Positions 5,801 to 56,873 of a stretch of DNA of 64,000 nucleotides are shown one piece after another. The stretch lies in NCBI GenBank assembly GCA_027053075.1, contig JALUEE010000078.1, positions 25,189 to 89,188 of the forward strand, in the 5' to 3' direction. Position 1 is the stretch's first letter, and each line of letters opens with the position of its first letter. This stretch comes from a candidate division WOR-3 bacterium. GTDB lineage: Bacteria; Hydrothermota; Hydrothermia; B15-G9; WFZT01. The notes under the pieces were generated by a model. That model was given only the letters and a program-made list of their open reading frames with translations. It was not told where the DNA came from and did no database searches. Position numbers and translations under genes: made by a program.

Positions 5801-6119
5801 ATATCCAGTTAATTCCATCTGAGCTGTTATAGATGTAAGCAGGATTCTGTCCCGGTAATCTCTTCGATCCAATCCATAGTCTATTGTAATTGTTACCAAT
5901 CCTGAATCTGCCAATCTTTATTATAGCAACTCGGTCAGCAGACACAATATAAAAATTGTTTCCTCTGTATCTCACAACCCCAATATCAGGAACAGTATCC
6001 CGGCTCAGGATAAGGCGGAAGTTGTTAACATAAAAACTGATCGTATCACCTACTTCTTTAGCGGGAAGAGTTGATATGAATAAAAGTGAAAGCACTAATA
6101 AAATCTTCTTAAAGCGCAT
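2802..6119 (-). CDS. Large secreted protein (1105 aa) with BNR-like beta-propeller region and T9SS C-terminal sorting domain
   Basis: Signal peptide; SDYGNSW / SPDNGNSW Asp-box motifs; C-terminal ...GVYFIRLKTSMRNVVKKIVFLKY CTD-like tail. Confidence 0.6.
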   Translation of the reverse strand: MRFKKILLVLSLLFISTLPAKEVGDTISFYVNNFRLILSRDTVPDIGVVRYRGNNFYIVSADRVAIIKIGRFRIGNNYNRLWIGSKRLPGQNPAYIYNSSDGINWIWERGLSGMDLKIDRYIRPTGDTVTVADMDVFDFNYVRDSLPAIKAIIFAATSDGLFSTLFTSSPGPWKLEAFADTTVYGIAVNPMTVSFGGRGQVLYAATSYGVYRVETQGFNSPSTDSLLGTLTDTVWTICGDPSDSSRLLIGAVSGIYRWSSNDWEHLNVNFGKVYNIRYIAGSFYVAADSGLFKTSDYGNSWNTVGTFDYPVTDVVIDNGHMYVSLLGGGVMESPDNGNSWNDFSNGLETLRLLGSKNVYTIFNDSTGLYLGCDEGVYHYNETLAKWENVSNGVGSLMTDRTVSTVASVLENDSVSVFDSIISYLHIDPNVLVDVDNDPRVYIILTRLVQTSNATDPTVIPVFGYFDPRDEDLFDNYSTKREVLVVDLSKFISNGSINRSKLQAFMAYLYGRYAVWSVDMQANPAELTGVAAWASYRCGFDFADGVKGGIDYLGNKKYLNSPLLDYTHQWLNSPVAREIDRERMLLWFEYMSQIYGDTVVTKDVLHGGLRGYRSLNEVIKKYSYGKDSLLTFAPKWYLALTFNRTLYLQDSSGSIVDTAFGYAPPMDSIHVKSAAISDIPGSGEQKSSQVMAPSGFAVWRDAIDTITGERFNAKDGDQDYLKIFMVCGTDSVAKVVPLDSLGRFAMTVNDDSCSSFKYLIANLNVSKTIPYYLTEDTTAPQIVGTYALQNPGNPRMIQMYVVGYDKVGSRFYGLMTDVKTPNPIVTFSTLADSSPETRAYNMKLLSSGDSLFNYFVPVLLDLRGDVEVSVRAQDLAGNDASISPDTISVQSISEQGGVYTALGGQVIIEAPANAFPGVTTVLIDKIDKDLAELTYHGASTGMSDVYLIGNNRITSAREITIKIRPMSREAQKVYAYRNGEWEPIKTYYDEESGFYIFRTRKLGAFQLRSGTPERFGFSFAVVNGPIIYSNKNIRLNLSLDRADKVDISLYNTAGRMVKRLVSGKLQAGIHTFDVNTSDIHLTSGVYFIRLKTSMRNVVKKIVFLKY

Positions 6120-6131
6120 GGTGATCCTCCT

Positions 6132-7109
6132 TTATTTTGCAAACACAATTCCTAATCTAACAACATCAGGTAAGTGCCCAAAATCGTTGTAAGAAATATC
6201 AAATCTCTTATTTCCAAGGTTAAATGACGCTCCGGCACCGAATCCACCTTCGTCAAGGTTAAAGTGATACCCCGCTCTCAGAGTCAGGATTTCTACTGGC
6301 TGCATCTCAAAACCGATAGCAAAAGATTCCCTGTTATCCTTGGGATTGATAATTTCCACAGAACCTGTGAGTCTCTTGATTTTATTACCATTCTTTATGA
6401 AATCTCTTGCTAAGCCCAGCCTGAAGGTCAACGGGAGTGAATAACTCTGGTATTTTCTTTTCTCTGTAGTAACCTGGCTTCCTTTCATTATCCATAAATC
6501 ATATTCACCTTTAGGGGACATGTCAGCGCCAAGATTCTGCAAAGACATCGCAACTCTAATATCTTTAAAACCTGTGTAGAAGTAGGTTCCTGCATCTATT
6601 GCAACTGAGTAAGCACTTGTTACATTTCCAAGATTTTCATCAATAAATTTCACAGCAACACCGGCTGCAAATTTATCCGTGTAGAATCTTGAAACGCCAA
6701 ATCCAAGCTGCATTGCAGAATAAGAAAATGTGCCAGTTTCCACAATATTATGATTCTCGTCAAAGGCTACCCCTTCAAATCCTCCCATGTAAATTCCACT
6801 TGCAAAAACGGAGAAAGTACCAATAGGATATTTCGGGAAAATCACAGCAAAGGCCGGAACACGTCCATCTGCAATCCAGTTTGAATAACTCGTAAAGAAT
6901 GCAAACTGTCTCAAATGGGCAATACCTGCTGGATTCCAGAAAATACTCGATGGATCATTTGCAACAGCAACGAATGCGTCTCCCATTCCTGAAGCTCTCG
7001 GGGTAACGCTGATGGACAGGAATTTGGCCCCTGCACTACCCACAGGAACCTGTGAGTACAGGGGAGCGCTCATTAAGGCAATTATTAACAATTTCTTAAG
7101 CATCACCAA
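6132..7109 (-). CDS. PorV/PorQ-like T9SS-associated outer-membrane beta-barrel protein (FadL-like)
   Basis: Signal peptide; N-terminal motif ...GAKFLSISVTPRASGMGDAFVAVANDPSSIFWNPAGIAHL matching the conserved PorV/PorQ N-terminus; alternating beta-strand pattern; C-terminal aromatic residue. Confidence 0.5.
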   Translation of the reverse strand: MVMLKKLLIIALMSAPLYSQVPVGSAGAKFLSISVTPRASGMGDAFVAVANDPSSIFWNPAGIAHLRQFAFFTSYSNWIADGRVPAFAVIFPKYPIGTFSVFASGIYMGGFEGVAFDENHNIVETGTFSYSAMQLGFGVSRFYTDKFAAGVAVKFIDENLGNVTSAYSVAIDAGTYFYTGFKDIRVAMSLQNLGADMSPKGEYDLWIMKGSQVTTEKRKYQSYSLPLTFRLGLARDFIKNGNKIKRLTGSVEIINPKDNRESFAIGFEMQPVEILTLRAGYHFNLDEGGFGAGASFNLGNKRFDISYNDFGHLPDVVRLGIVFAK

Positions 7110-7114
7110 CCTCC

Positions 7115-9205
7115 TTATTTAAGGATGAGAAACTTCCCAATCTTGTATTTGCCATCCGGTGTTTCAACCTTATAAATGTAGACGCCAGTAACAACTTTCT
7201 GCCCTGATCTCGTCAGCAAGTTCCAGGCCTCTGAACCGTCAGTAGAAGAATTGTGAACTATTGTCTTAACCAGGTCACCACTCAGTGTGTAAATCCTTAT
7301 TACTGCCTGTGGAGGTAAATTGATGAATTCAACCTTATCGGCTATTTCAGATGCTGTCCATGGTGCCGAGCCCTTATAAGGATTGGGTACAACTTTAACG
7401 TTATCAACAGAGCTGGCTGGCTGAGTGCCTATAACAAGAGCAAGCGGGTTGCCATCCTCGTCTTTCTTATAGTTATTTTTGGGGCTTTCGAGAGAATCAT
7501 CATCAACTGCAACTACTACATAATAGTATGGGAATCCAACGGAAACTGTTGTATCAACATAGGAGTGCACAAATCCACCAGTTGAATCCTGGTGAAATTC
7601 AGCTATTAACTGCCAGTTGGAGGGTGCAAAAACGGCTCTATAAACTCTATATGCTACGACATCAACAACTCCCTTAATAGGATCAGGAGTCCTTTCTGCA
7701 TAATCATCCCATATAAGTTCAACGCCCCGCTTGGTATAAGAGTACCTCAACCCGGGCGCAGCTGGGGGAACAGGAATATTCCAGTGACGATCCTCATCCG
7801 GTGCTGATGGATGTGCAGGGTCACTATGCTCTGAACCTGCATAATAGGCTTTCAAAGCATTTTCCATCACCTGTCTCAAACCTAACAACCAGCCTCTACC
7901 CCAATAAGAATCATAGCCACCATTCATTCCCTGTCCTACTCCTACGACCCATACGAATTTTAGTGTATCACCAGGTCTCAAAGTAAACGGTCCTACAGTG
8001 GAAAGGAAACGATAATCAAATACAGATGCATGCAAATCCTCAGGATGTGGGGCATATCTATAATAGTGCCCATTCATATAGGTAGCTCTGTGATGACCCT
8101 TTAAATAGTTGTAAATATCCTCATCAGTAGCCGGGTCACTTTCCCAGTTCCACCACTGGTGAGACCATGGTCTTACTATTCTGCATGTATCACCATTAAC
8201 GACCCAGGTCGTATCTGAAGGTGCTGGAGGAGTATACAACCAGCTACCGCCTATATATCCAGCGCATGCTCCACCTTCACCTGTATCATCACCTGGATCT
8301 GCCGGATTATCACCATCGTAAATATAGGAAATGCCTCTTGGAATCAGATAACCCCTGATGGTGTCCGTATCACTTCTAACGATCGTCCATGCAGCAGCTG
8401 AATCAACAATATGTTCATTATCCTCGTCACCCCATACCAGATACTGGTCGGGAATACCATCGGGTTGTGCCAGAAAAGTATCAGGAAGAACTGTAAAGCT
8501 ATCTACTGGCTCTCTGTGTCTAAAATTCGGATTATTCCATTCACCGTTTGTCCAGCCATCAAAAGACACAAGGTCATCAATGTGTGGATCAGAAGGATCA
8601 GCTCCGCAAACATCACAGTCATACCACATTCCAAGGTACAGGCTGTCGAGTTCCGCAGGCGGAGAGGAACCAATGTCACATTCATTGGGGTCATAAGTTA
8701 TATAAAATTCATGAGCAATAAAATTGTTGTACGGGTAATGTGGCCAGGCGAGAGTGTGAATCACAACTTTAATTCCAGAATGTCTTCCCGGTGTATTCTT
8801 CGGATTAGATTTGTAATCATTGATAGAAGTATAAACATCCCATGCAGATTCTCTTGGACCCGCCACAGAGTTATAGTCACTCGTGTAGTTCCATTCTCCA
8901 TCAGGATAGTTATGAGATGTTACATACACATTATCACCGACTTTAAATCCGATGGTGAAATAGCTACCCCACAAGTAATATGGATGTCCATTACCGCCGG
9001 GCCAATCATATCCATAATCGTTGTTGTTGAAATCTCCTCCGAGACTTCCAAAATTACTTATGTAGTTCCACACATTGCCAACAGTAATGTTAAACTTCTG
9101 CTTCTTGGAGTCTTTGGTGCTCATTACACCCGTAGAAGAACCGGTATCTCTCGCACCCAACACAGTGAATGCAAGAAATGCACTTAGCAAAATTGCTCTT
9201 TTCAT
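7115..9205 (-). CDS. Secreted hypothetical protein (696 aa) with T9SS C-terminal sorting domain
   Basis: Signal peptide; Asp/Trp/Tyr-rich body; C-terminal VKVVPNPYKG...AVIRIYTLSGDLVKT...GVYIYKV...KFLILK CTD. Confidence 0.6.
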   Translation of the reverse strand: MKRAILLSAFLAFTVLGARDTGSSTGVMSTKDSKKQKFNITVGNVWNYISNFGSLGGDFNNNDYGYDWPGGNGHPYYLWGSYFTIGFKVGDNVYVTSHNYPDGEWNYTSDYNSVAGPRESAWDVYTSINDYKSNPKNTPGRHSGIKVVIHTLAWPHYPYNNFIAHEFYITYDPNECDIGSSPPAELDSLYLGMWYDCDVCGADPSDPHIDDLVSFDGWTNGEWNNPNFRHREPVDSFTVLPDTFLAQPDGIPDQYLVWGDEDNEHIVDSAAAWTIVRSDTDTIRGYLIPRGISYIYDGDNPADPGDDTGEGGACAGYIGGSWLYTPPAPSDTTWVVNGDTCRIVRPWSHQWWNWESDPATDEDIYNYLKGHHRATYMNGHYYRYAPHPEDLHASVFDYRFLSTVGPFTLRPGDTLKFVWVVGVGQGMNGGYDSYWGRGWLLGLRQVMENALKAYYAGSEHSDPAHPSAPDEDRHWNIPVPPAAPGLRYSYTKRGVELIWDDYAERTPDPIKGVVDVVAYRVYRAVFAPSNWQLIAEFHQDSTGGFVHSYVDTTVSVGFPYYYVVVAVDDDSLESPKNNYKKDEDGNPLALVIGTQPASSVDNVKVVPNPYKGSAPWTASEIADKVEFINLPPQAVIRIYTLSGDLVKTIVHNSSTDGSEAWNLLTRSGQKVVTGVYIYKVETPDGKYKIGKFLILK

Positions 9206-29787: not shown

Positions 29788-30170
29788 TATCGTCTTCCGT
29801 GCCGGCCTCTCCTTTGTTTAAAGCCATGTCCCCGCCACACGGGAAAGCCGTTTGGGTCACGTAGAGTCAGTTTTTTCTTCAGAGTTTTATCGTTAATTTT
29901 CCCTGCGATTATTATGTTGTTGTGAATACTACCATAAATTTCCACCGTGTCTCCGGTACGTGGAAGCCACGGCATTCCAAATCGTGGCCCAAGGAGTACC
30001 TCAAAAGTATCCTTTTTTTCAGTAACAATGTCCATTCTTATAGGCCATGCTGTGTCGTGCACAGCATCAACCACCCCTCCTACAGTCTTCAAACTCTTGA
30101 GATTATAGTACAATCTCTGCCCCCCTGGTTGGGCAAATAATGTGAACGTTAACAGTAAACTAAGAATCAT
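29787..30170 (-). CDS. Small secreted protein with Gly/Arg-rich basic C-terminal tail; paralog of 31872..32267
   Basis: Start MILSLLLTFTLFAQ overlaps upstream stop (ATGA); VGGVVDAV...GDTVEIYGSI...WRGHGFKQRRGRHGRR; shares architecture with the 32267 protein. Confidence 0.45.
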   Translation of the reverse strand: MILSLLLTFTLFAQPGGQRLYYNLKSLKTVGGVVDAVHDTAWPIRMDIVTEKKDTFEVLLGPRFGMPWLPRTGDTVEIYGSIHNNIIIAGKINDKTLKKKLTLRDPNGFPVWRGHGFKQRRGRHGRR

Positions 30171-30991
30171 TTTTGCAGCTCCTCCCATATTTCGTATGGG
30201 GTTTTCCCTATTTTATCCGAAAATTCACGCAAAGTCATGTTCTTATCCATCTTTACCCCATACTTTAAAAATAGACTTTTGACCTTCTTTTCACTTACAC
30301 CTTGCCTCTCAATCAGTTCCTCAAAAGTCATCCTGCCGAGTCCCATTATCTGTTTACCGGAAAATCTTTCCTTTAGAAGATCATAAATATGCTCGGGAGA
30401 AGTTGAGTTTTTAGCTGCTATGTCTTTTAATTTTTCGTCAACGCTTTGTACCTTTATTCCTCTATTATTCAGATATTTGAGGGCAATTTCTGGATCACCT
30501 TTCAAATCTTCCACCACTTTTTTCAGAGAATAAAGTTCCATGTGAGGAATCGGTGGAGACTGGAGTTTCTTCTCCCATGAATTCTTGAAGTAATCCCCGA
30601 TATCCATAACAGTTTTGAAAGGTGGAACGTTTCCTGCCGACCCAACTATGATTACGACGGTCAAAACTGTAGCAACTGCGAGCTCCTTTTTCAGATAAAA
30701 TGCATGCTTTGCCTTTCTGTACACGTAGTTATAAAGAGATTTCCAGTTGTAGTAAATGTGGAAGATAGCGAATATCAAAAACGCGTATCCAAGGTTTGTA
30801 TGCAATGATTCCCACTGGGTTTTTGTGAGACCCAGTAGTTTCCAGTTTGTCCATTGTGCAATTCTCCCAGGTGGCACGATGTATAGGATGATCCCTGAAA
30901 AAACGAGACCAATAAATGAGAGTGCCATCAGAAATGCTACGAATCCACGAGAATGCCACTTCTTTTCTTTCCTCTTTACTGCTGTCATTTT
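30167..30991 (-). CDS. DUF4405-like membrane protein (cytochrome b-like four-helix membrane domain) with soluble C-terminal extension
   Basis: RGFVAFLMALSFIGLVFSGIILYIVPPGRIAQWTNWKLLGLTKTQWESLHTNLGYAFLIFAIFHIYYNW resembles DUF4405; start moved to MTAVKRK because the upstream part of the ORF is a GC hairpin repeat. Confidence 0.45.
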   Translation of the reverse strand, partial: KMTAVKRKEKKWHSRGFVAFLMALSFIGLVFSGIILYIVPPGRIAQWTNWKLLGLTKTQWESLHTNLGYAFLIFAIFHIYYNWKSLYNYVYRKAKHAFYLKKELAVATVLTVVIIVGSAGNVPPFKTVMDIGDYFKNSWEKKLQSPPIPHMELYSLKKVVEDLKGDPEIALKYLNNRGIKVQSVDEKLKDIAAKNSTSPEHIYDLLKERFSGKQIMGLGRMTFEELIERQGVSEKKVKSLFLKYGVKMDKNMTLREFSDKIGKTPYEIWEELQK

Positions 30992-31057
30992 TAGAACCTC
31001 CTGTGTGTAACGTCCAGTGGGCTTAAAGCTATACAGAGTTCCCGGCTGAATTCCAGG

Positions 31058-31087
31058 GGGGGGCGTGCCCCTGCGGGGCACGCCCCC
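31058..31087. repeat. GC-rich hairpin GGGGGCGTGCCCC-TGC-GGGGCACGCCCCC
   Basis: Perfect 13-bp arms; followed by a T-run on plus strand. Confidence 0.7.
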
Positions 31088-31099
31088 TGATTCCTGTTT

Positions 31100-31774
31100 T
31101 TATCTTGCTCTCCCACGATATCTAAATCTACTTCTTCCGTTTGAACCCGAAATAATCCCGTCAAATCTCTCCTGTGAAATATACTGAGGAGAGTATGTGC
31201 CACCATTCCTTAAAATCTGTCTATAAAATGCCCTCATGTGGTTCTCTGAACCATTAACAAGGTGTGTGTAAACCCTGATCACGTCAGAATTGACGGCAAT
31301 ATTTGCGAGGGCCTCATCCAGATCGTAAATATCAAGGTCTTCAATGGTTGCTCCCACCACGAGGGCGTCAAGTAACGACCTGCTCCCCTGTTCCACAAGT
31401 CTCTGGTAGAGAGCCGTTAAATTTGGATCCTGGAAGAATCCAATCGAGTCATTTGTTACGGGATCAGCAATTCCATATCTGTCAAGTAATGTTTTTACTG
31501 CATTTGTGTGTCTCTGCTCACTCGAGGCAATGTTATTGAATATTCTTGCTCCCCATCTTTGGTATAGAGTGAGGTACACGTCTCTTGCAAGCTTTTCTTC
31601 CTGTCTCATGTGTATGAGACTCTGGATTTCATCCTGGGTCAAATCAGTTGTCGTGGGTTGAACAGCAGTGGTCTGTGCCACTGGATCATTCATGGAAATA
31701 GCTGATGATTGACCGCAGGCAGTGAATGCAAATACAGAACCTACTATTATAGTTAGTGCTAACAATCTTCTCAT
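31100..31774 (-). CDS. Lipoprotein with ferritin-like DUF2202-type domain
   Basis: Lipobox AFTACG; DLTQDEIQSLIHMRQEEKLARDVYLTLY...SEQRHTNAV...IEDLDIYDL...SENHMRAF resembles DUF2202 ferritin-like di-iron helices; Arg-rich tail. Confidence 0.5.
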   Translation of the reverse strand: MRRLLALTIIVGSVFAFTACGQSSAISMNDPVAQTTAVQPTTTDLTQDEIQSLIHMRQEEKLARDVYLTLYQRWGARIFNNIASSEQRHTNAVKTLLDRYGIADPVTNDSIGFFQDPNLTALYQRLVEQGSRSLLDALVVGATIEDLDIYDLDEALANIAVNSDVIRVYTHLVNGSENHMRAFYRQILRNGGTYSPQYISQERFDGIISGSNGRSRFRYRGRAR

Positions 31775-36974: not shown

Positions 36975-37007
36975 GGCGGGCCCACGCACGAAGTGCGTGG
37001 GCCCGCC
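36975..37007. repeat. Hairpin GGCGGGCCCACGCAC-GAA-GTGCGTGGGCCCGCC
   Basis: Perfect 15-bp arms containing the CACGCAC core. Confidence 0.7.
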
Positions 37008-37145
37008 GAAGCAATTCCAATAACCTTAAAAAAAAGACATACTGGATGGGACCAGGGCTTCTGGCAAATTGAAAGAGCAATAAATATGGGGTCATTAATC
37101 TTCCACGAAGATTTTTTGTGGTCAACTCAAGGCAAATGCATTAAA

Positions 37146-37607
37146 ATGATTGATATGAGAAAATTTCTAATTGGTGGCATAGTAATTCTGCTTCTTACTT
37201 CCTGCACGGCAGTGAGACAGGTCGTGGCTATTAAAGACCTGAAGATTAAGTTTCAAAACGTGGAGCTGGCACGCATAACCTTAGAAGGGGTGGACCTGAA
37301 CCTCAACTTTAAAGCCTACAATCCAAATAGAGTGAACGCAGTACTCTCTGGATTTGCCGTTGATATATTTGCCAACAATATGAAAGTAGGAAAAGCGACC
37401 CTCAATAAAACCCTGAAAGTCCCTGCCGGTGGTAACGCAACCTTCACCATTCCCCTTCATCTGAGCTGGAGGGAGCTTTCTAATTCTCTCTCAAATGCAA
37501 TAAGGAAAAAATCCGTTACCTTTCGCGCCACAGGTTATGCTTTGATAAATACCCCACTTGGCAAACTCCGTTTTAAAGTCGCTGATTACACAAGAGAGAT
37601 CAGGTAG
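37146..37607 (+). CDS. Lipoprotein with LEA_2/WHy (late-embryogenesis-abundant type 2) domain
   Basis: Lipobox LLLTSCTAV; LKIKFQNVEL...LEGVDLNLNFKAYNPNRVNAVLSGFAVDIFANNMKVGKA typical of LEA_2. Confidence 0.55.
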   Translation: MIDMRKFLIGGIVILLLTSCTAVRQVVAIKDLKIKFQNVELARITLEGVDLNLNFKAYNPNRVNAVLSGFAVDIFANNMKVGKATLNKTLKVPAGGNATFTIPLHLSWRELSNSLSNAIRKKSVTFRATGYALINTPLGKLRFKVADYTREIR

Positions 37608-54638: not shown

Positions 54639-54782
54639 TTTCTCTCGCTCCAGGGGAAACGTTGAAAATAAATGTTAATCACTGGCAGTTAGATTAATCA
54701 AGTATTTTATGCGTGAATCCTACTTTCTTGCCGTTATCCATGCGGTATTTAAAAACTTTGAAGAAGTCAGTCATGTGTTTTT

Positions 54783-54819
54783 CCTGGGGGGCCACGCACT
54801 TCGTGCGTGGCCCCCCAGG
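54783..54819. repeat. Hairpin CCTGGGGGGCCACGCAC-TTC-GTGCGTGGCCCCCCAGG
   Basis: Perfect 17-bp arms, CACGCAC core. Confidence 0.75.
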
Positions 54820-54924
54820 AAAAACAATTCCTTTATAAGATGCATCTAATGCTTTGAATCTCCCATCGTGCTTTTACAACTCTATTTTGTCAAATTCCTC
54901 ATGCAGGTGTAAAATTTATATGAA

Positions 54925-56013
54925 ATGTTTCCTTTCACTGCCTTTGTCGATCAGGAAGATTTAAAGCTCGGCCTTCTCATTGCTGTGGTAAATCCAAAAG
55001 TCGGTGGTGTCCTTCTCACCGGTGAAAAGGGGACAGGTAAGACCACCCTCGTGCGCTCCCTCGCGGAAATATTACCCATGATCGAAGCTGTAAAAGGGTG
55101 CCCCTTCCATTGCTACCCCTACGATAAAAGACGTCAGTGCCCAGAGTGCCGAAAGAAAGAGCATATCGAGGTAGAAAAGATTCCCATGAAGATAGTGGAA
55201 CTTCCCATTGGAGCCACAGAGGATATGGTTCTTGGCACCATCAATATTGAAAAGGCTGTGAAAGAAAAGACCATAAGCTTTGAAATTGGCATTCTTGGCC
55301 GTGCAAACAGGAATATTCTCTACATCGACGAGGTGAATTTGCTTCCTGATTACCTGGTGGATGTCATCCTCGATGCTGCTGCAACGGGATGGAATACCGT
55401 TGAGCGTGAGGGAATTTCCTATTCTCACCCTGCAGAATTTATCCTCATTGGAAGTATGAATCCTGAGGAAGGAGACCTGCGACCCCAGTTGCTCGACAGA
55501 TTTGGTCTGAGTATTGAAGTTAAGCCTATAAGGGATCCAAAATTGAGAGTAGAAGTTTACAGACGACGTGAAGAGTACGACCGCGACCCCGAGGGTTTCA
55601 GGAAAAAGTGTGAAGATAAGCAGAATGAGCTTAAAATGCGAATTGCACATGCGAGGGAAATTCTGGACGAGGTTGAAATTCCAGAAAATGTAATGCTCCA
55701 GACTGCAGAGCTCATGATTTCTCTTGGTGTGAAGTCCAACCGTGCGGAAATAACAACCTTCCGTGCAGCAAAGGCAGTCGCAGCCCTTGATGGCAGAAAA
55801 ATTGTAACCTGGGATGATGTAAAGAGGGTGGTAAAATTTGCCGTTGCTCATAGGATACCTGCCGATAAAAGAAGAGAAATCGATGGTTTACTCAAGGAGA
55901 AAATCGAGGAAAAGGTGGTAGTTCCAGAGAATAAGGGGCCTCAAAAGACCACCCGTGGAATAATTGATTTCTTTGTTCAAAAGGTGAAGGGTAACAGCGA
56001 AAAAAAAAGTTAG
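54925..56013 (+). CDS. Mg-chelatase ChlI/BchI-like AAA+ ATPase
   Basis: MFPFTAFVDQEDLKLGLLIAVVNPKVGGVLLTGEKGTGKTT... nearly collinear with ChlI ([40 protein letters not shown]); sensor-2 PQLLDRFGLSIEV; Cys4 insert CPFHCYPYDKRRQCPECRK; 0-frame TAG stop at 56011-56013, 3 nt after an A9 tract (56000-56008). Confidence 0.8.
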   Translation: MFPFTAFVDQEDLKLGLLIAVVNPKVGGVLLTGEKGTGKTTLVRSLAEILPMIEAVKGCPFHCYPYDKRRQCPECRKKEHIEVEKIPMKIVELPIGATEDMVLGTINIEKAVKEKTISFEIGILGRANRNILYIDEVNLLPDYLVDVILDAAATGWNTVEREGISYSHPAEFILIGSMNPEEGDLRPQLLDRFGLSIEVKPIRDPKLRVEVYRRREEYDRDPEGFRKKCEDKQNELKMRIAHAREILDEVEIPENVMLQTAELMISLGVKSNRAEITTFRAAKAVAALDGRKIVTWDDVKRVVKFAVAHRIPADKRREIDGLLKEKIEEKVVVPENKGPQKTTRGIIDFFVQKVKGNSEKKS

Positions 56014-56198
56014 CCAGAATCACAGGGGACAATAAGGGAACCAAACCCCTTATTTCCGAGCTCGGCATCAAAGGTAAGGAGATTTTCCTCGGACAGGATG
56101 TCAAAAGGGAGTTTAAGGAAATTGATTTTGGTGAAGTTGAGGAAGGGATAAAGAGAGGGAGAGGGAGAAGGTTTTTTGATTCATTTAAGGGTAAAAAG

Positions 56199-56873
56199 GT
56201 GGGGGAGAGGGCTTATCACCGTGGTGATAGGGTGGACATTTTCTCAACTTTCTTGAGAATGCTGAAAAATGGGGGAGAGGAGATAGATGAGCTTAGGTCT
56301 GCCAGGTTTGAAGAGCCCAAAAAGCGTCTCATTCTGGTACTCTTAGATGCCAGTGATTCCATGGAAAGGGTGATAGATGCAACAAGGGAGGCCGTTGTTA
56401 AAATTCTCAAGGATAGCTATGTTTCAAGGGATGAGGTGGCAATTATCAAGTTTCAGGGGGCAGATGCAGACCTTGTGATAAAACCCACAAGAAATGCCAT
56501 ATATGCTGATGAAAAGTTGAGAAGTATTCGGGTCAAGGGTTCAACTCCGTTAGCTGCCGGGTTTAGGAAATCTATTGATTTCTTAAGGAAGGTGAAGCCC
56601 CACTACAAAAACACACTTTTTGTTCTTGTCTCAGATGGGAATCCCAATGTTTCGCGAGATGGTGACCCTGTGGAAAGTGCGGTAAAACTTGCAGGGGAAC
56701 TCAGACGTCTTGCCGATGTCCGTATCTTTATCAACCCCAATCCATCCCTTGTAGAGGTCCCAAGAAAAATAGCCGCAGCCCTCGGTGCAAAGTACGTCGA
56801 GCTAAAAAGCGAAGAAAAAACCACCGAAGCATTATCTAAAATGATCGGCTCGAAAGGTGGTCAGAGAATTTAA
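56199..56873 (+). CDS. von Willebrand factor A (vWA) domain protein, ChlD/BchD C-terminal-like; probably extends upstream (no stop from 55995)
   Basis: MIDAS motif LVLLDASDSMER; ...TPLAAGF...LFVLVSDGNPN; ORF-track start is GTG at 56199, but the frame is open for 68 codons upstream. Confidence 0.65.
   Translation: MGERAYHRGDRVDIFSTFLRMLKNGGEEIDELRSARFEEPKKRLILVLLDASDSMERVIDATREAVVKILKDSYVSRDEVAIIKFQGADADLVIKPTRNAIYADEKLRSIRVKGSTPLAAGFRKSIDFLRKVKPHYKNTLFVLVSDGNPNVSRDGDPVESAVKLAGELRRLADVRIFINPNPSLVEVPRKIAAALGAKYVELKSEEKTTEALSKMIGSKGGQRI

Follow-up and report, generated by a model that had tools for sequence, protein, structure and literature searches.

A chlD-type gene probably recoded on a conserved A9 tract in a candidate division WOR-3 bacterium

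The closest described counterparts of the locus analysed here—a ChlI-like and a vWA reading frame that overlap at positions 54925-56873 of a 64,000-nucleotide stretch of DNA (contig JALUEE010000078.1, positions 25,189 to 89,188; assembly GCA_027053075.1) from a candidate division WOR-3 bacterium, which whole stretch we refer to as the window—are the genes published as the fs-chlD family. Antonov et al. (2013, NAR; PMC3711429) reported 23 'magnesium chelatase' genes that are annotated as two adjacent open reading frames (ORFs) of ~1 kb and that involve a -1 shift on poly-A, noted that fused homologues of those shifted genes exist, and gave for Mg-chelatase fs-genes in Escherichia coli a shifting of 63%, 40%, and 10% with 11, 9, and 7 As, respectively. 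The review by Atkins et al. (2016; PMC5009743), in a section entitled 'Magnesium chelatase: also regulatory?', describes the overlapping ORFs, the slippery sequence A_AAA_AAR, and a strong purifying selection, and the same review indicates nine A/T as the length where bacterial RNA polymerase slips efficiently, as for example in Thermus dnaX. That the small subunit and the medium one both come from one chlD gene was proposed by Antonov (2020, MBE; doi 10.1093/molbev/msaa081), as cited in Kuznetsov, Milenkin, and Antonov (2022; PMC9227772). The latter authors describe 'stage 1' orphans without a large subunit or a Chl/B12 pathway (Spirochaeta thermophila, Brevefilum fermentans) and a 'stage 8' in which cobN is present, and they state that fs-chlD signals usually include a downstream structure.

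From the comparisons given below, we consider it highly probable that the WOR-3 locus is a single chlD-type gene with programmed -1 recoding on a conserved A9 tract, from which a short ChlI-like and a long ChlD-like product would be obtained; and the feature itself is real, conserved, and almost certainly functional. The initial annotation of the window, made from its letters alone, had already proposed that one gene supplies I-like and D-like subunits through a -1 slip, which proposal is supported by all the comparative tests that it had put forward; the idea, however, is not new, being that of the published fs-chlD family. The parts of the locus are the following:

54925..56013, plus strand: zero-frame ORF for a ChlI/BchI-like AAA+ ATPase of 362 amino acids (aa), the predicted short product (direct reading; Pfam, NCBIfam, and PDB matches)
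55995..56873, plus strand: -1-frame ORF for the linker and the vWA domain, without in-frame stops in all five lineages compared, and proposed to be reached only by recoding
55997..56013, plus strand: invariant recoding core of 17 nucleotides (nt), GCG-AAAAAAAAA-GTTAG, the longest invariant DNA block in a six-sequence, five-lineage alignment
56000..56008, plus strand: A9 slippery tract, with the zero-frame heptamer A_AAA_AAA at 56001-56007; candidate site of a -1 ribosomal shift and/or of a one-A insertion by RNA polymerase
56010..56318, plus strand: 103-codon conserved linker (protein alignment; ratio of non-synonymous to synonymous rates, dN/dS), including the invariant block PLISELGIKGKE.FLG at 56046-56093
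56011..56013, plus strand: zero-frame TAG stop, one codon past the heptamer and lying inside the -1-frame Leu codon TTA plus G
56319..56870, plus strand: vWA/integrin-I domain with an intact metal-ion-dependent adhesion site (MIDAS), namely DASDS at 56346-56360, GSTPLA at 56538-56555, and SDGN at 56631-56642

By direct reading, the ATG at 54925 starts a 362-aa ORF whose 3' end is AAC AGC GAA AAA AAA AGT TAG; and in the -1 (=+2) frame, which opens at 55995, no stop occurs between a TAA at 55992-55994 and the TAA at 56871-56873. The overlap of the two ORFs amounts to just 19 nt, with the A9 tract at its centre. The end of the ChlI-like ORF at the TAG of 56013, the A9 at 56000..56008, the stop-free course of the -1 frame from 55995 into the vWA part, the 68 codons between 55995 and GTG 56199, and the intact DASDS motif all stand as initially annotated; and the slip product then expected, of about 650 aa, comes to 649 aa with either a -1 shift or one added A, and has a ChlD-type architecture. 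The tract is the one A9/T9 of the window, as against 4.9 +/- 3.2 such runs in dinucleotide shuffles: an A9 is not improbable per se, and these runs are, if anything, avoided in the window. What does go beyond chance is the position of the A9 within the 19-nt overlap, together with its conservation across lineages.

Upon standard decoding of the A9 mRNA, translation would stop at the TAG and produce the 362-aa ChlI-like AAA+ ATPase, whereas in a fraction of the events the frame would move back one base, to produce the 649-aa AAA+/linker/vWA protein. If the shift were ribosomal, the event would consist in a tandem -1 slip on A_AAA_AAA, with the P-site at 56002-56004 and the A-site at 56005-56007, after which the reading AAG TTA GCC... 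would give ...NSEKK-K-LARITG... as the junction. If, alternatively, the slippage were transcriptional—a route that the initial annotation had not considered and that, by analogy with Thermus dnaX, would account equally well for the fusion—the RNA polymerase would stutter on the A9 template, so that an A10 or an A7 mRNA would encode the same fusion. The outcomes computed for each mRNA were a fusion of 649 aa from A10 and of 648 aa from A7, and products of 362, 369, and 370 aa from A9, A8, and A11, respectively. Because the length of the run follows in part from the encoding of E-K-K-K, the sequence does not separate the ribosomal from the transcriptional route, and both may contribute; the length dependence of the published shifting would fit a transcriptional contribution. 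By homology with BchI/BchD and CobS/CobT, the short and the long products would then assemble as a two-tier I/D AAA+ motor, whose I/D stoichiometry, as we infer, would be set by the frequency of the slip.

The domains of the two ORFs agree with that scheme. The ChlI-like ORF matches the Pfam families AAA_lid_2, AAA_5, and Mg_chelatase as well as TIGR02030 BchI-ChlI (E=1e-119), its residues 1-330 match the PDB ChlI structures 8osf and 6l8d (E ~1e-98), and its Walker A (GEKGTGKT, 55021-55044), Walker B (ILYIDEV, 55315-55335), and Arg-finger region (DLRPQLLDRF, 55474-55503) are all intact. The -1-frame ORF, for its part, matches Pfam VWA_2 and VWA_CoxE, while residues 466-618 of the fusion match the C-terminal domain of BchD (2x31_A, E=1.8e-12), and the MIDAS residues (DASDS, GSTPLA, SDGN) are invariant in the protein alignment of the relatives. 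When taken as a single protein, the conceptual fusion aligns end to end with TIGR02442 'putative cobaltochelatase' (residues 2-627 with model positions 1-640 of 641, E=7.6e-173), and displays the architecture of a ChlD/BchD-type medium subunit: AAA+, linker, and a C-terminal integrin-I/vWA domain with MIDAS (DxSxS...T...D). A different identity for the pair, that of a MoxR/vWA-type defence system, was rejected upon a PADLOC search that gave just a P-loop-level match, of 23 bits. As a separate observation, the ChlI-like module contains at 55096-55149 a four-Cys insert, GCPFHCYPYDKRRQCPEC (C-x3-C...C-x2-C), common to the fused archaeal relative P0011 (GCPFNCNP...MCEVC), which insert may form a metal-binding ribbon inside the AAA+ domain.

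To compare the locus with its relatives, the fusion protein was queried against 5.8 billion proteins, and orthologue DNA was obtained from protein searches, the encoding contigs, and one metagenome scan; a contig scan with the ChlI part, dominated by cyanobacterial ChlI (~50% identity), recovered no orthologues. In the protein search, the six nearest relatives (78-99% identity) were ChlI-only ORFs of 362-363 aa, and all the remoter ones were single AAA+ plus vWA proteins of 590-770 aa, mostly archaeal, that bore the names putative cobaltochelatase, Mg-chelatase subunit D, or VWA domain protein. To P0011, one of these natural fusions, the conceptual fusion aligns in one continuous BLASTP segment over the junction (residues 1-624, 40% identity). 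The -1-frame part as query found only four relatives, each called as a short vWA ORF, with differing starts (163-221 aa).

The contigs recovered came from NCBI, ENA, JGI, and Logan assemblies of more than 10 samples, and were grouped in five lineages: (i) the window, L081, L095, L096, L097, and L098; (ii) L082; (iii) L084, L085, and L086; (iv) L089, L092, L093, and L094; and (v) L090 and L091. These lineages share 71-83% aa identity. Each clean locus has a ChlI-like ORF and, overlapping its end by 16-28 nt, a vWA ORF in the -1 frame; and the junction GCG-AAAAAAAAA-GTTAG is identical in 16 contigs from the five lineages. The orthologues are, in other words, also bridged by the A-tract, with A9 plus GTTAG invariant in the five lineages and natural fusions among distant relatives; and neither a well-separated, ATG-initiated vWA gene nor stops in the linker frame, the findings that the initial annotation had named as contrary to its proposal, were seen in any orthologue.

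Two archaeal relatives illustrate arrangements without a frameshift: the Bathyarchaeia metagenome-assembled genome L008 has at 5813-8980 a separate chlI-like gene, directly after which a further ChlI-like module and a vWA match share one frame (chlI plus fused chlD), and another such genome, L028, has one fused gene at 6001-7977. A 59-72% relative, L083 (Logan contig, SRR26701729; 4666-6657), was considered as a case where the shift site had moved to a T9, but was set aside as a decayed copy or an error-prone assembly on account of its lesions: 1 nt is missing close to the N-terminus, a CGA codon of the Arg-finger region has become the nonsense codon TGA, and the frame changes at runs of A5, T9, and A7.

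Between the five lineages synonymous sites are saturated (proportion of synonymous differences, pS, 0.75-0.97), and yet 17 consecutive columns, GCGAAAAAAAAAGTTAG, do not vary at all, a length that no other invariant DNA block of the junction alignment comes near. The genes of these lineages use AAA for 45-66% of Lys, GAA for 44-59% of Glu, and TTA for 9-17% of Leu, and no second A-run longer than 6 occurs in any of them, despite 62-69 Lys codons per gene; the naive chance of finding GAA-AAA-AAA plus TTA in all five lineages, as calculated from their own codon usage on the assumption of independence, is ~5e-9. The TTA that follows the tract is invariant, also in the fused A10 allele of contig L088, and matters because this codon with the following G carries the zero-frame TAG. 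The shift site is conserved past what the coding requires.

That fused allele bears directly on the alternative which survives best, namely, that DNA-level phase variation is the main route to the vWA part. Slipped-strand mispairing would in that instance toggle the tract between A9, giving the ChlI-like protein only, and A10, giving the fusion only, so that only the A10 subpopulation would make the vWA domain. Homopolymers of nine bases are typical contingency tracts. L088 (2838-2847), which shares its JGI metagenome of origin with L085, carries A10 in an otherwise unchanged core and reads without interruption as a 640-aa fusion ORF, whereas L090/L091 (11076-11084) have A9 and are split, and two synonymous plus one non-synonymous changes are all that otherwise distinguish L088 from the latter. 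We nevertheless hold phase variation as the main route to be very unlikely: A9 was assembled in 16/17 clean contigs, from five lineages and more than 10 samples; the dN/dS of the vWA part, at 0.06-0.12, would be hard to maintain were that part silent in the majority state; the TAG within TTA-G is kept in the A10 allele, which suggests a role for both products in either state; and the lone A10, if not a true polymorphism at the DNA level, could be a homopolymer miscall. In L088, moreover, the A-run and the TTA-G are kept and both alternative frames stop within a few codons, so that this allele could still make the short product by slippage, in the manner of Thermus dnaX. Phase variation can coexist with recoding, as a layer added to it.

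The linker and the possible starts within it distinguish the proposed recoding from the existence of two independent genes, where the vWA protein would be translated from an internal start (e.g., GTG 56199 or ATG 56259), possibly through coupling or through reinitiation following the ChlI stop, and the A-tract would be incidental. In favor of that scheme, separate vWA ORFs are called in every relative, a weak promoter-like match is found at 56233-56260, and separate, adjacent chlI and chlD genes exist in other organisms ('stage 2' in PMC9227772). The 103 linker codons, however, contain 0 stops in the -1 frame versus 5-14 in the other two frames, in all five lineages; against the close relatives L081 and L095, they differ by 8-12 synonymous and 4-6 non-synonymous changes (dN/dS 0.12-0.125); and in the deep pairs the proportion of non-synonymous differences (pN) is 0.11-0.26 with pS saturated, which values are similar to those of the vWA domain. 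Ahead of any start, 68 codons or more are free of stops and under purifying selection, exactly in the -1 frame and back as far as the A-tract, and the most conserved peptide block, PLISELGIKGKE.FLG, which is the longest invariant peptide of the C-terminal half, lies upstream of the candidate starts.

As to those starts, the initial statement that the vWA frame has no ATG and only the GTG at 56199 holds for the region upstream of 56199, but not farther on, where GTG 56232, TTG 56253, and ATG 56259 also precede the MIDAS. No start codon ahead of the vWA domain is conserved across the lineages: GTG 56199 (V69) is replaced by Ile/Thr and ATG 56259 (M89) by Thr/Ala, and the sole invariant Met (56361) falls after the DxSxS of the MIDAS. 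Gene callers place the vWA start at four different points among the relatives, with products of 163-272 aa. When we add that homology with the natural fusions is continuous over the junction and that the 17-nt core is invariant past the coding requirement, two independent genes become highly improbable; a linker that is stop-free and selected, with no conserved start, would indicate that translation of the vWA part continues from the A-tract, for which recoding is needed.

Scarcely credible, finally, is an artefact or a pseudogene, in which a homopolymer error (true A10) or a recent 1-bp deletion had split an ordinary fused chlD-like gene; for although homopolymers are error-prone, fused relatives exist, and the related Logan contig L083 is full of frame errors and has a nonsense codon, the identical A9 recurs in 16 contigs, drawn from four sources (NCBI, ENA, JGI, and Logan) and from five lineages in which dS is saturated; over 1,949 nt, A9 included, no base distinguishes the window from two further assemblies of its organism, L096 (ENA) and L097 (Logan, where another assembler was used); and the downstream ORF, stop-free and under strong purifying selection, is a misfit with decay. 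The initial annotation had pointed to the homopolymer length as a possible source of error; as independent assemblies of the same organism agree on A9, an assembly error at that position is effectively excluded.

Several results nonetheless weigh against the recoding of a chelatase gene as we propose it. To begin with, the initial annotation saw no ChlH/CobN-like partner in the window, and we likewise found none among the three window ORFs of at least 1000 aa or the other ORFs scanned, nor any large chelatase subunit within ~10 kb in the four other lineages; with no CobN/ChlH nearby, the locus resembles by analogy the published 'stage 1' orphan fs-chlD genes. Moreover, the curated NCBIfam cut-offs are not reached by the matches (TIGR02442, 576.4 vs 779.45; TIGR02031 BchD-ChlD, 315.6 vs 499.55; TIGR02030, 399.6 vs 466.95): the fusion is a divergent relative of the chelatase I/D proteins rather than a certified equivalog, and with scores below those trusted cut-offs a chelatase function is only putative. 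The length of the A9, for its part, follows partly from the coding of E-K-K-K and by itself is no proof of a selection for slippage; and the A10 in the near-identical L088 means that either DNA-level length variation or homopolymer error occurs at the tract.

A conserved stimulatory RNA structure was not found either, the RNAalifold covariation term being -0.22 kcal/mol and the 92 nt downstream folding no better than shuffles (z=-0.29); with no conserved structure downstream, a purely ribosomal shift might be inefficient. A small GGG...CCC hairpin ~25 nt downstream was discarded as a stimulator since it shows no covariation and is too distant, and an Rfam scan of the window gave no match, including no frameshift element and no cobalamin riboswitch. 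The initial annotation had also pointed out a palindrome 42 nt downstream of the tract, which proved to be at a slightly greater distance:

56056..56065, plus strand: palindrome CCGAGCTCGG, 47 nt after the tract, encoding the conserved S-E-L-G

We do not retain this element as a signal, because synonymous changes break the palindrome in relatives (tctgagctcggt, tcagaacttggc, tcagagcttgga). In all the lineages, G-rich purine tracts are present 9-15 nt upstream of the A9; that these act as a stimulator like the Shine–Dalgarno (SD)-like element of dnaX is suggestive, and they also encode Gly, Arg, and Lys.

Upstream of the gene we found a further element:

54887..54915, plus strand: promoter-like TTGTCA-17-TAAAAT (consensus scan, 10/12 matches), ending ~10 nt before the ATG

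A comparable TTTG...TTTAAAAT(A) stands 7-10 nt ahead of the ChlI ATG in five/five lineages (the window, L082, L084, L090, and L092). With a promoter-like TTG...N17...TAAAAT just before the ATG in all the lineages, the gene looks like its own transcription unit, and the proximity of that site to the ATG suggests that the mRNA may have a short leader or be leaderless. Farther upstream, at 54778-54824, there is a perfect palindrome with a 20-bp stem, TTTTTCCTGGGGGGCCACGCAC-TTCG-GTGCGTGGCCCCCCAGGAAAAA, in the shape of a bidirectional terminator, which palindrome occupies the intergenic space that separates the ChlI-like gene from the divergent fabH (minus strand), and is upstream of the promoter-like site. 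Of the stem, just the inner part CCACGCAC/GTGCGTGG is kept in L095 and L098, which are relatives at 97-99%.

The window ORFs of at least 1000 aa encode a type IX secretion system (T9SS)-tailed protein (Por_Secre_tail), a SusC-like TonB-dependent receptor, and a tricorn-like protease; other neighbours in the window are fabH, a GT2 glycosyltransferase, GalT, a sigma-54 activator, and an ABC-2 transporter. The window also encodes a GH57 amylase and a UvrC whose true length is 601 aa versus the 698 aa of the mechanical ORF. The named proteins closest to this UvrC, at just 42-45% identity, come from metagenome-assembled genomes of candidate division WOR-3 (now Caldifarciminota) and of Ca. Hydrothermia; taken with the T9SS and SusC-like genes, that would suggest an uncultured bacterium that branches deeply within the FCB superphylum. 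The neighbours of the gene pair differ among the lineages: a CMAS-like S-adenosylmethionine (SAM) methyltransferase with DUF7884 lies convergent downstream of the pair in 3/5 lineages (L082, 4100-5386; L090, 15823-17109; L092, 11931-13424), and an aminotransferase upstream of the pair in two of these; neither the CMAS-like methyltransferase nor the aminotransferase is present in the window or in L084. As those neighbours vary and include no CobN/ChlH, conserved synteny was abandoned as a clue to function. Besides the A9, long homopolymers occur in the window at just two places: a G8 at 31056-31063 (a C8 when read along the coding strand), in the initial 25 nt of a DUF4405 ORF (30167-31081, minus) that directly follows a DUF2202 ORF (31100-31774, minus), and an A8 at 37028-37035, near the 5' end of a LEA_2-domain ORF (36993-37607, plus); both runs could be further slippage or phase-variation sites.

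The function of orphan fs-chlD complexes has been explicitly left open (PMC9227772). One could imagine that the tract is a two-level rheostat for an orphan I/D AAA+-vWA motor, in which an A9/A10 switch in the DNA inverts the default product and slippage at the RNA level supplies the other, and in which the I/D complex works without a CobN/ChlH-type large subunit in some function other than the insertion of metal into tetrapyrroles; we regard this extended scheme as conceivable, but on balance doubtful.

When the locus is placed beside the known systems, the I/D chelatases provide the protein model. Chelatase I and D subunits normally come from two separate genes, and the ATPase of canonical ChlD is usually degenerate. 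The N-terminal module of the present locus is ~50% identical to ChlI, the order AAA+, linker, vWA is that of BchD (ChlD), and the C-terminal domain matches the BchD integrin-I domain with its MIDAS intact. In contrast to both BchI/BchD and CobS/CobT, however, the D-like protein would have the same, apparently intact, ATPase as the I-like one, there is no H/N large subunit nearby, and the scores are below the equivalog cut-offs.

The comparison with dnaX of E. coli, to whose class of slippery site the initial annotation had assigned the tract, holds only in part. In common with that system the locus has a -1 shift, here predicted, on an A-run of Lys codons, which would yield an AAA+ protein in two forms at a fixed ratio; but the heptamer is A_AAA_AAA and not A_AAA_AAG, in place of a defined upstream SD-like element and downstream hairpin there is no conserved hairpin here, and the shift would give the long product (in the A9 state) instead of the short. 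The signal for programmed ribosomal frameshifting of the E. coli dnaX type (A_AAA_AAG plus a downstream stem-loop) was accordingly not found at the locus. With the dnaX of Thermus thermophilus there are sequence features in common: an A/T run of at least nine bases and nearby stops in both alternative frames were found here too, likewise within an AAA+ gene; and in both instances there would be two products with a common N-terminal AAA+ module that co-assemble. In Thermus, nevertheless, the zero frame is the long one (tau/gamma by transcriptional slippage) and the slip leads to the short product, whereas here a slip on A9 would lead to the long.

With the fs-chlD family, finally, the likeness is the closest, every sequence-level feature of that family being found at the locus: a ChlI-like AAA+ ORF overlapping a vWA ORF in the -1 frame; a poly-A site (A_AAA_AAR; 7-11 As) in the overlap under purifying selection, with the zero-frame stop just after; fused homologues, with which the trans-frame product aligns over the junction (TIGR02442, P0011, and the A10 relative L088); and, as the proposed output, small and medium subunits from one gene; orphan cases without chlH/cobN are on record in that family. 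The differences are that the WOR-3 host lineage is outside the phyla named in the fs-chlD papers, that the run is phased xAA_AAA_AAA_Axx versus xxA_AAA_AAA_AA in the tested 9-A cassette, that no downstream structure was detected, that a natural A9/A10 pair occurs among near-identical relatives, and that the fusion scores below the NCBIfam ChlD/cobaltochelatase cut-offs. By these features the locus would be an already-known recoding device, an additional fs-chlD example that reveals no new principle. The two-gene annotation ('ChlI-like ATPase' plus 'hypothetical vWA protein') would then be wrong for this clade, and should give way to one recoded chlD-type gene with two products; the fs-chlD family would gain an uncultured WOR-3-like lineage; a further I/D pair that seems to be an orphan, no large subunit being nearby, would bear on what such complexes do; and the 17-nt invariant core set against saturated synonymous divergence, along with the natural A9/A10 pair, provides that family with a clean comparative case.

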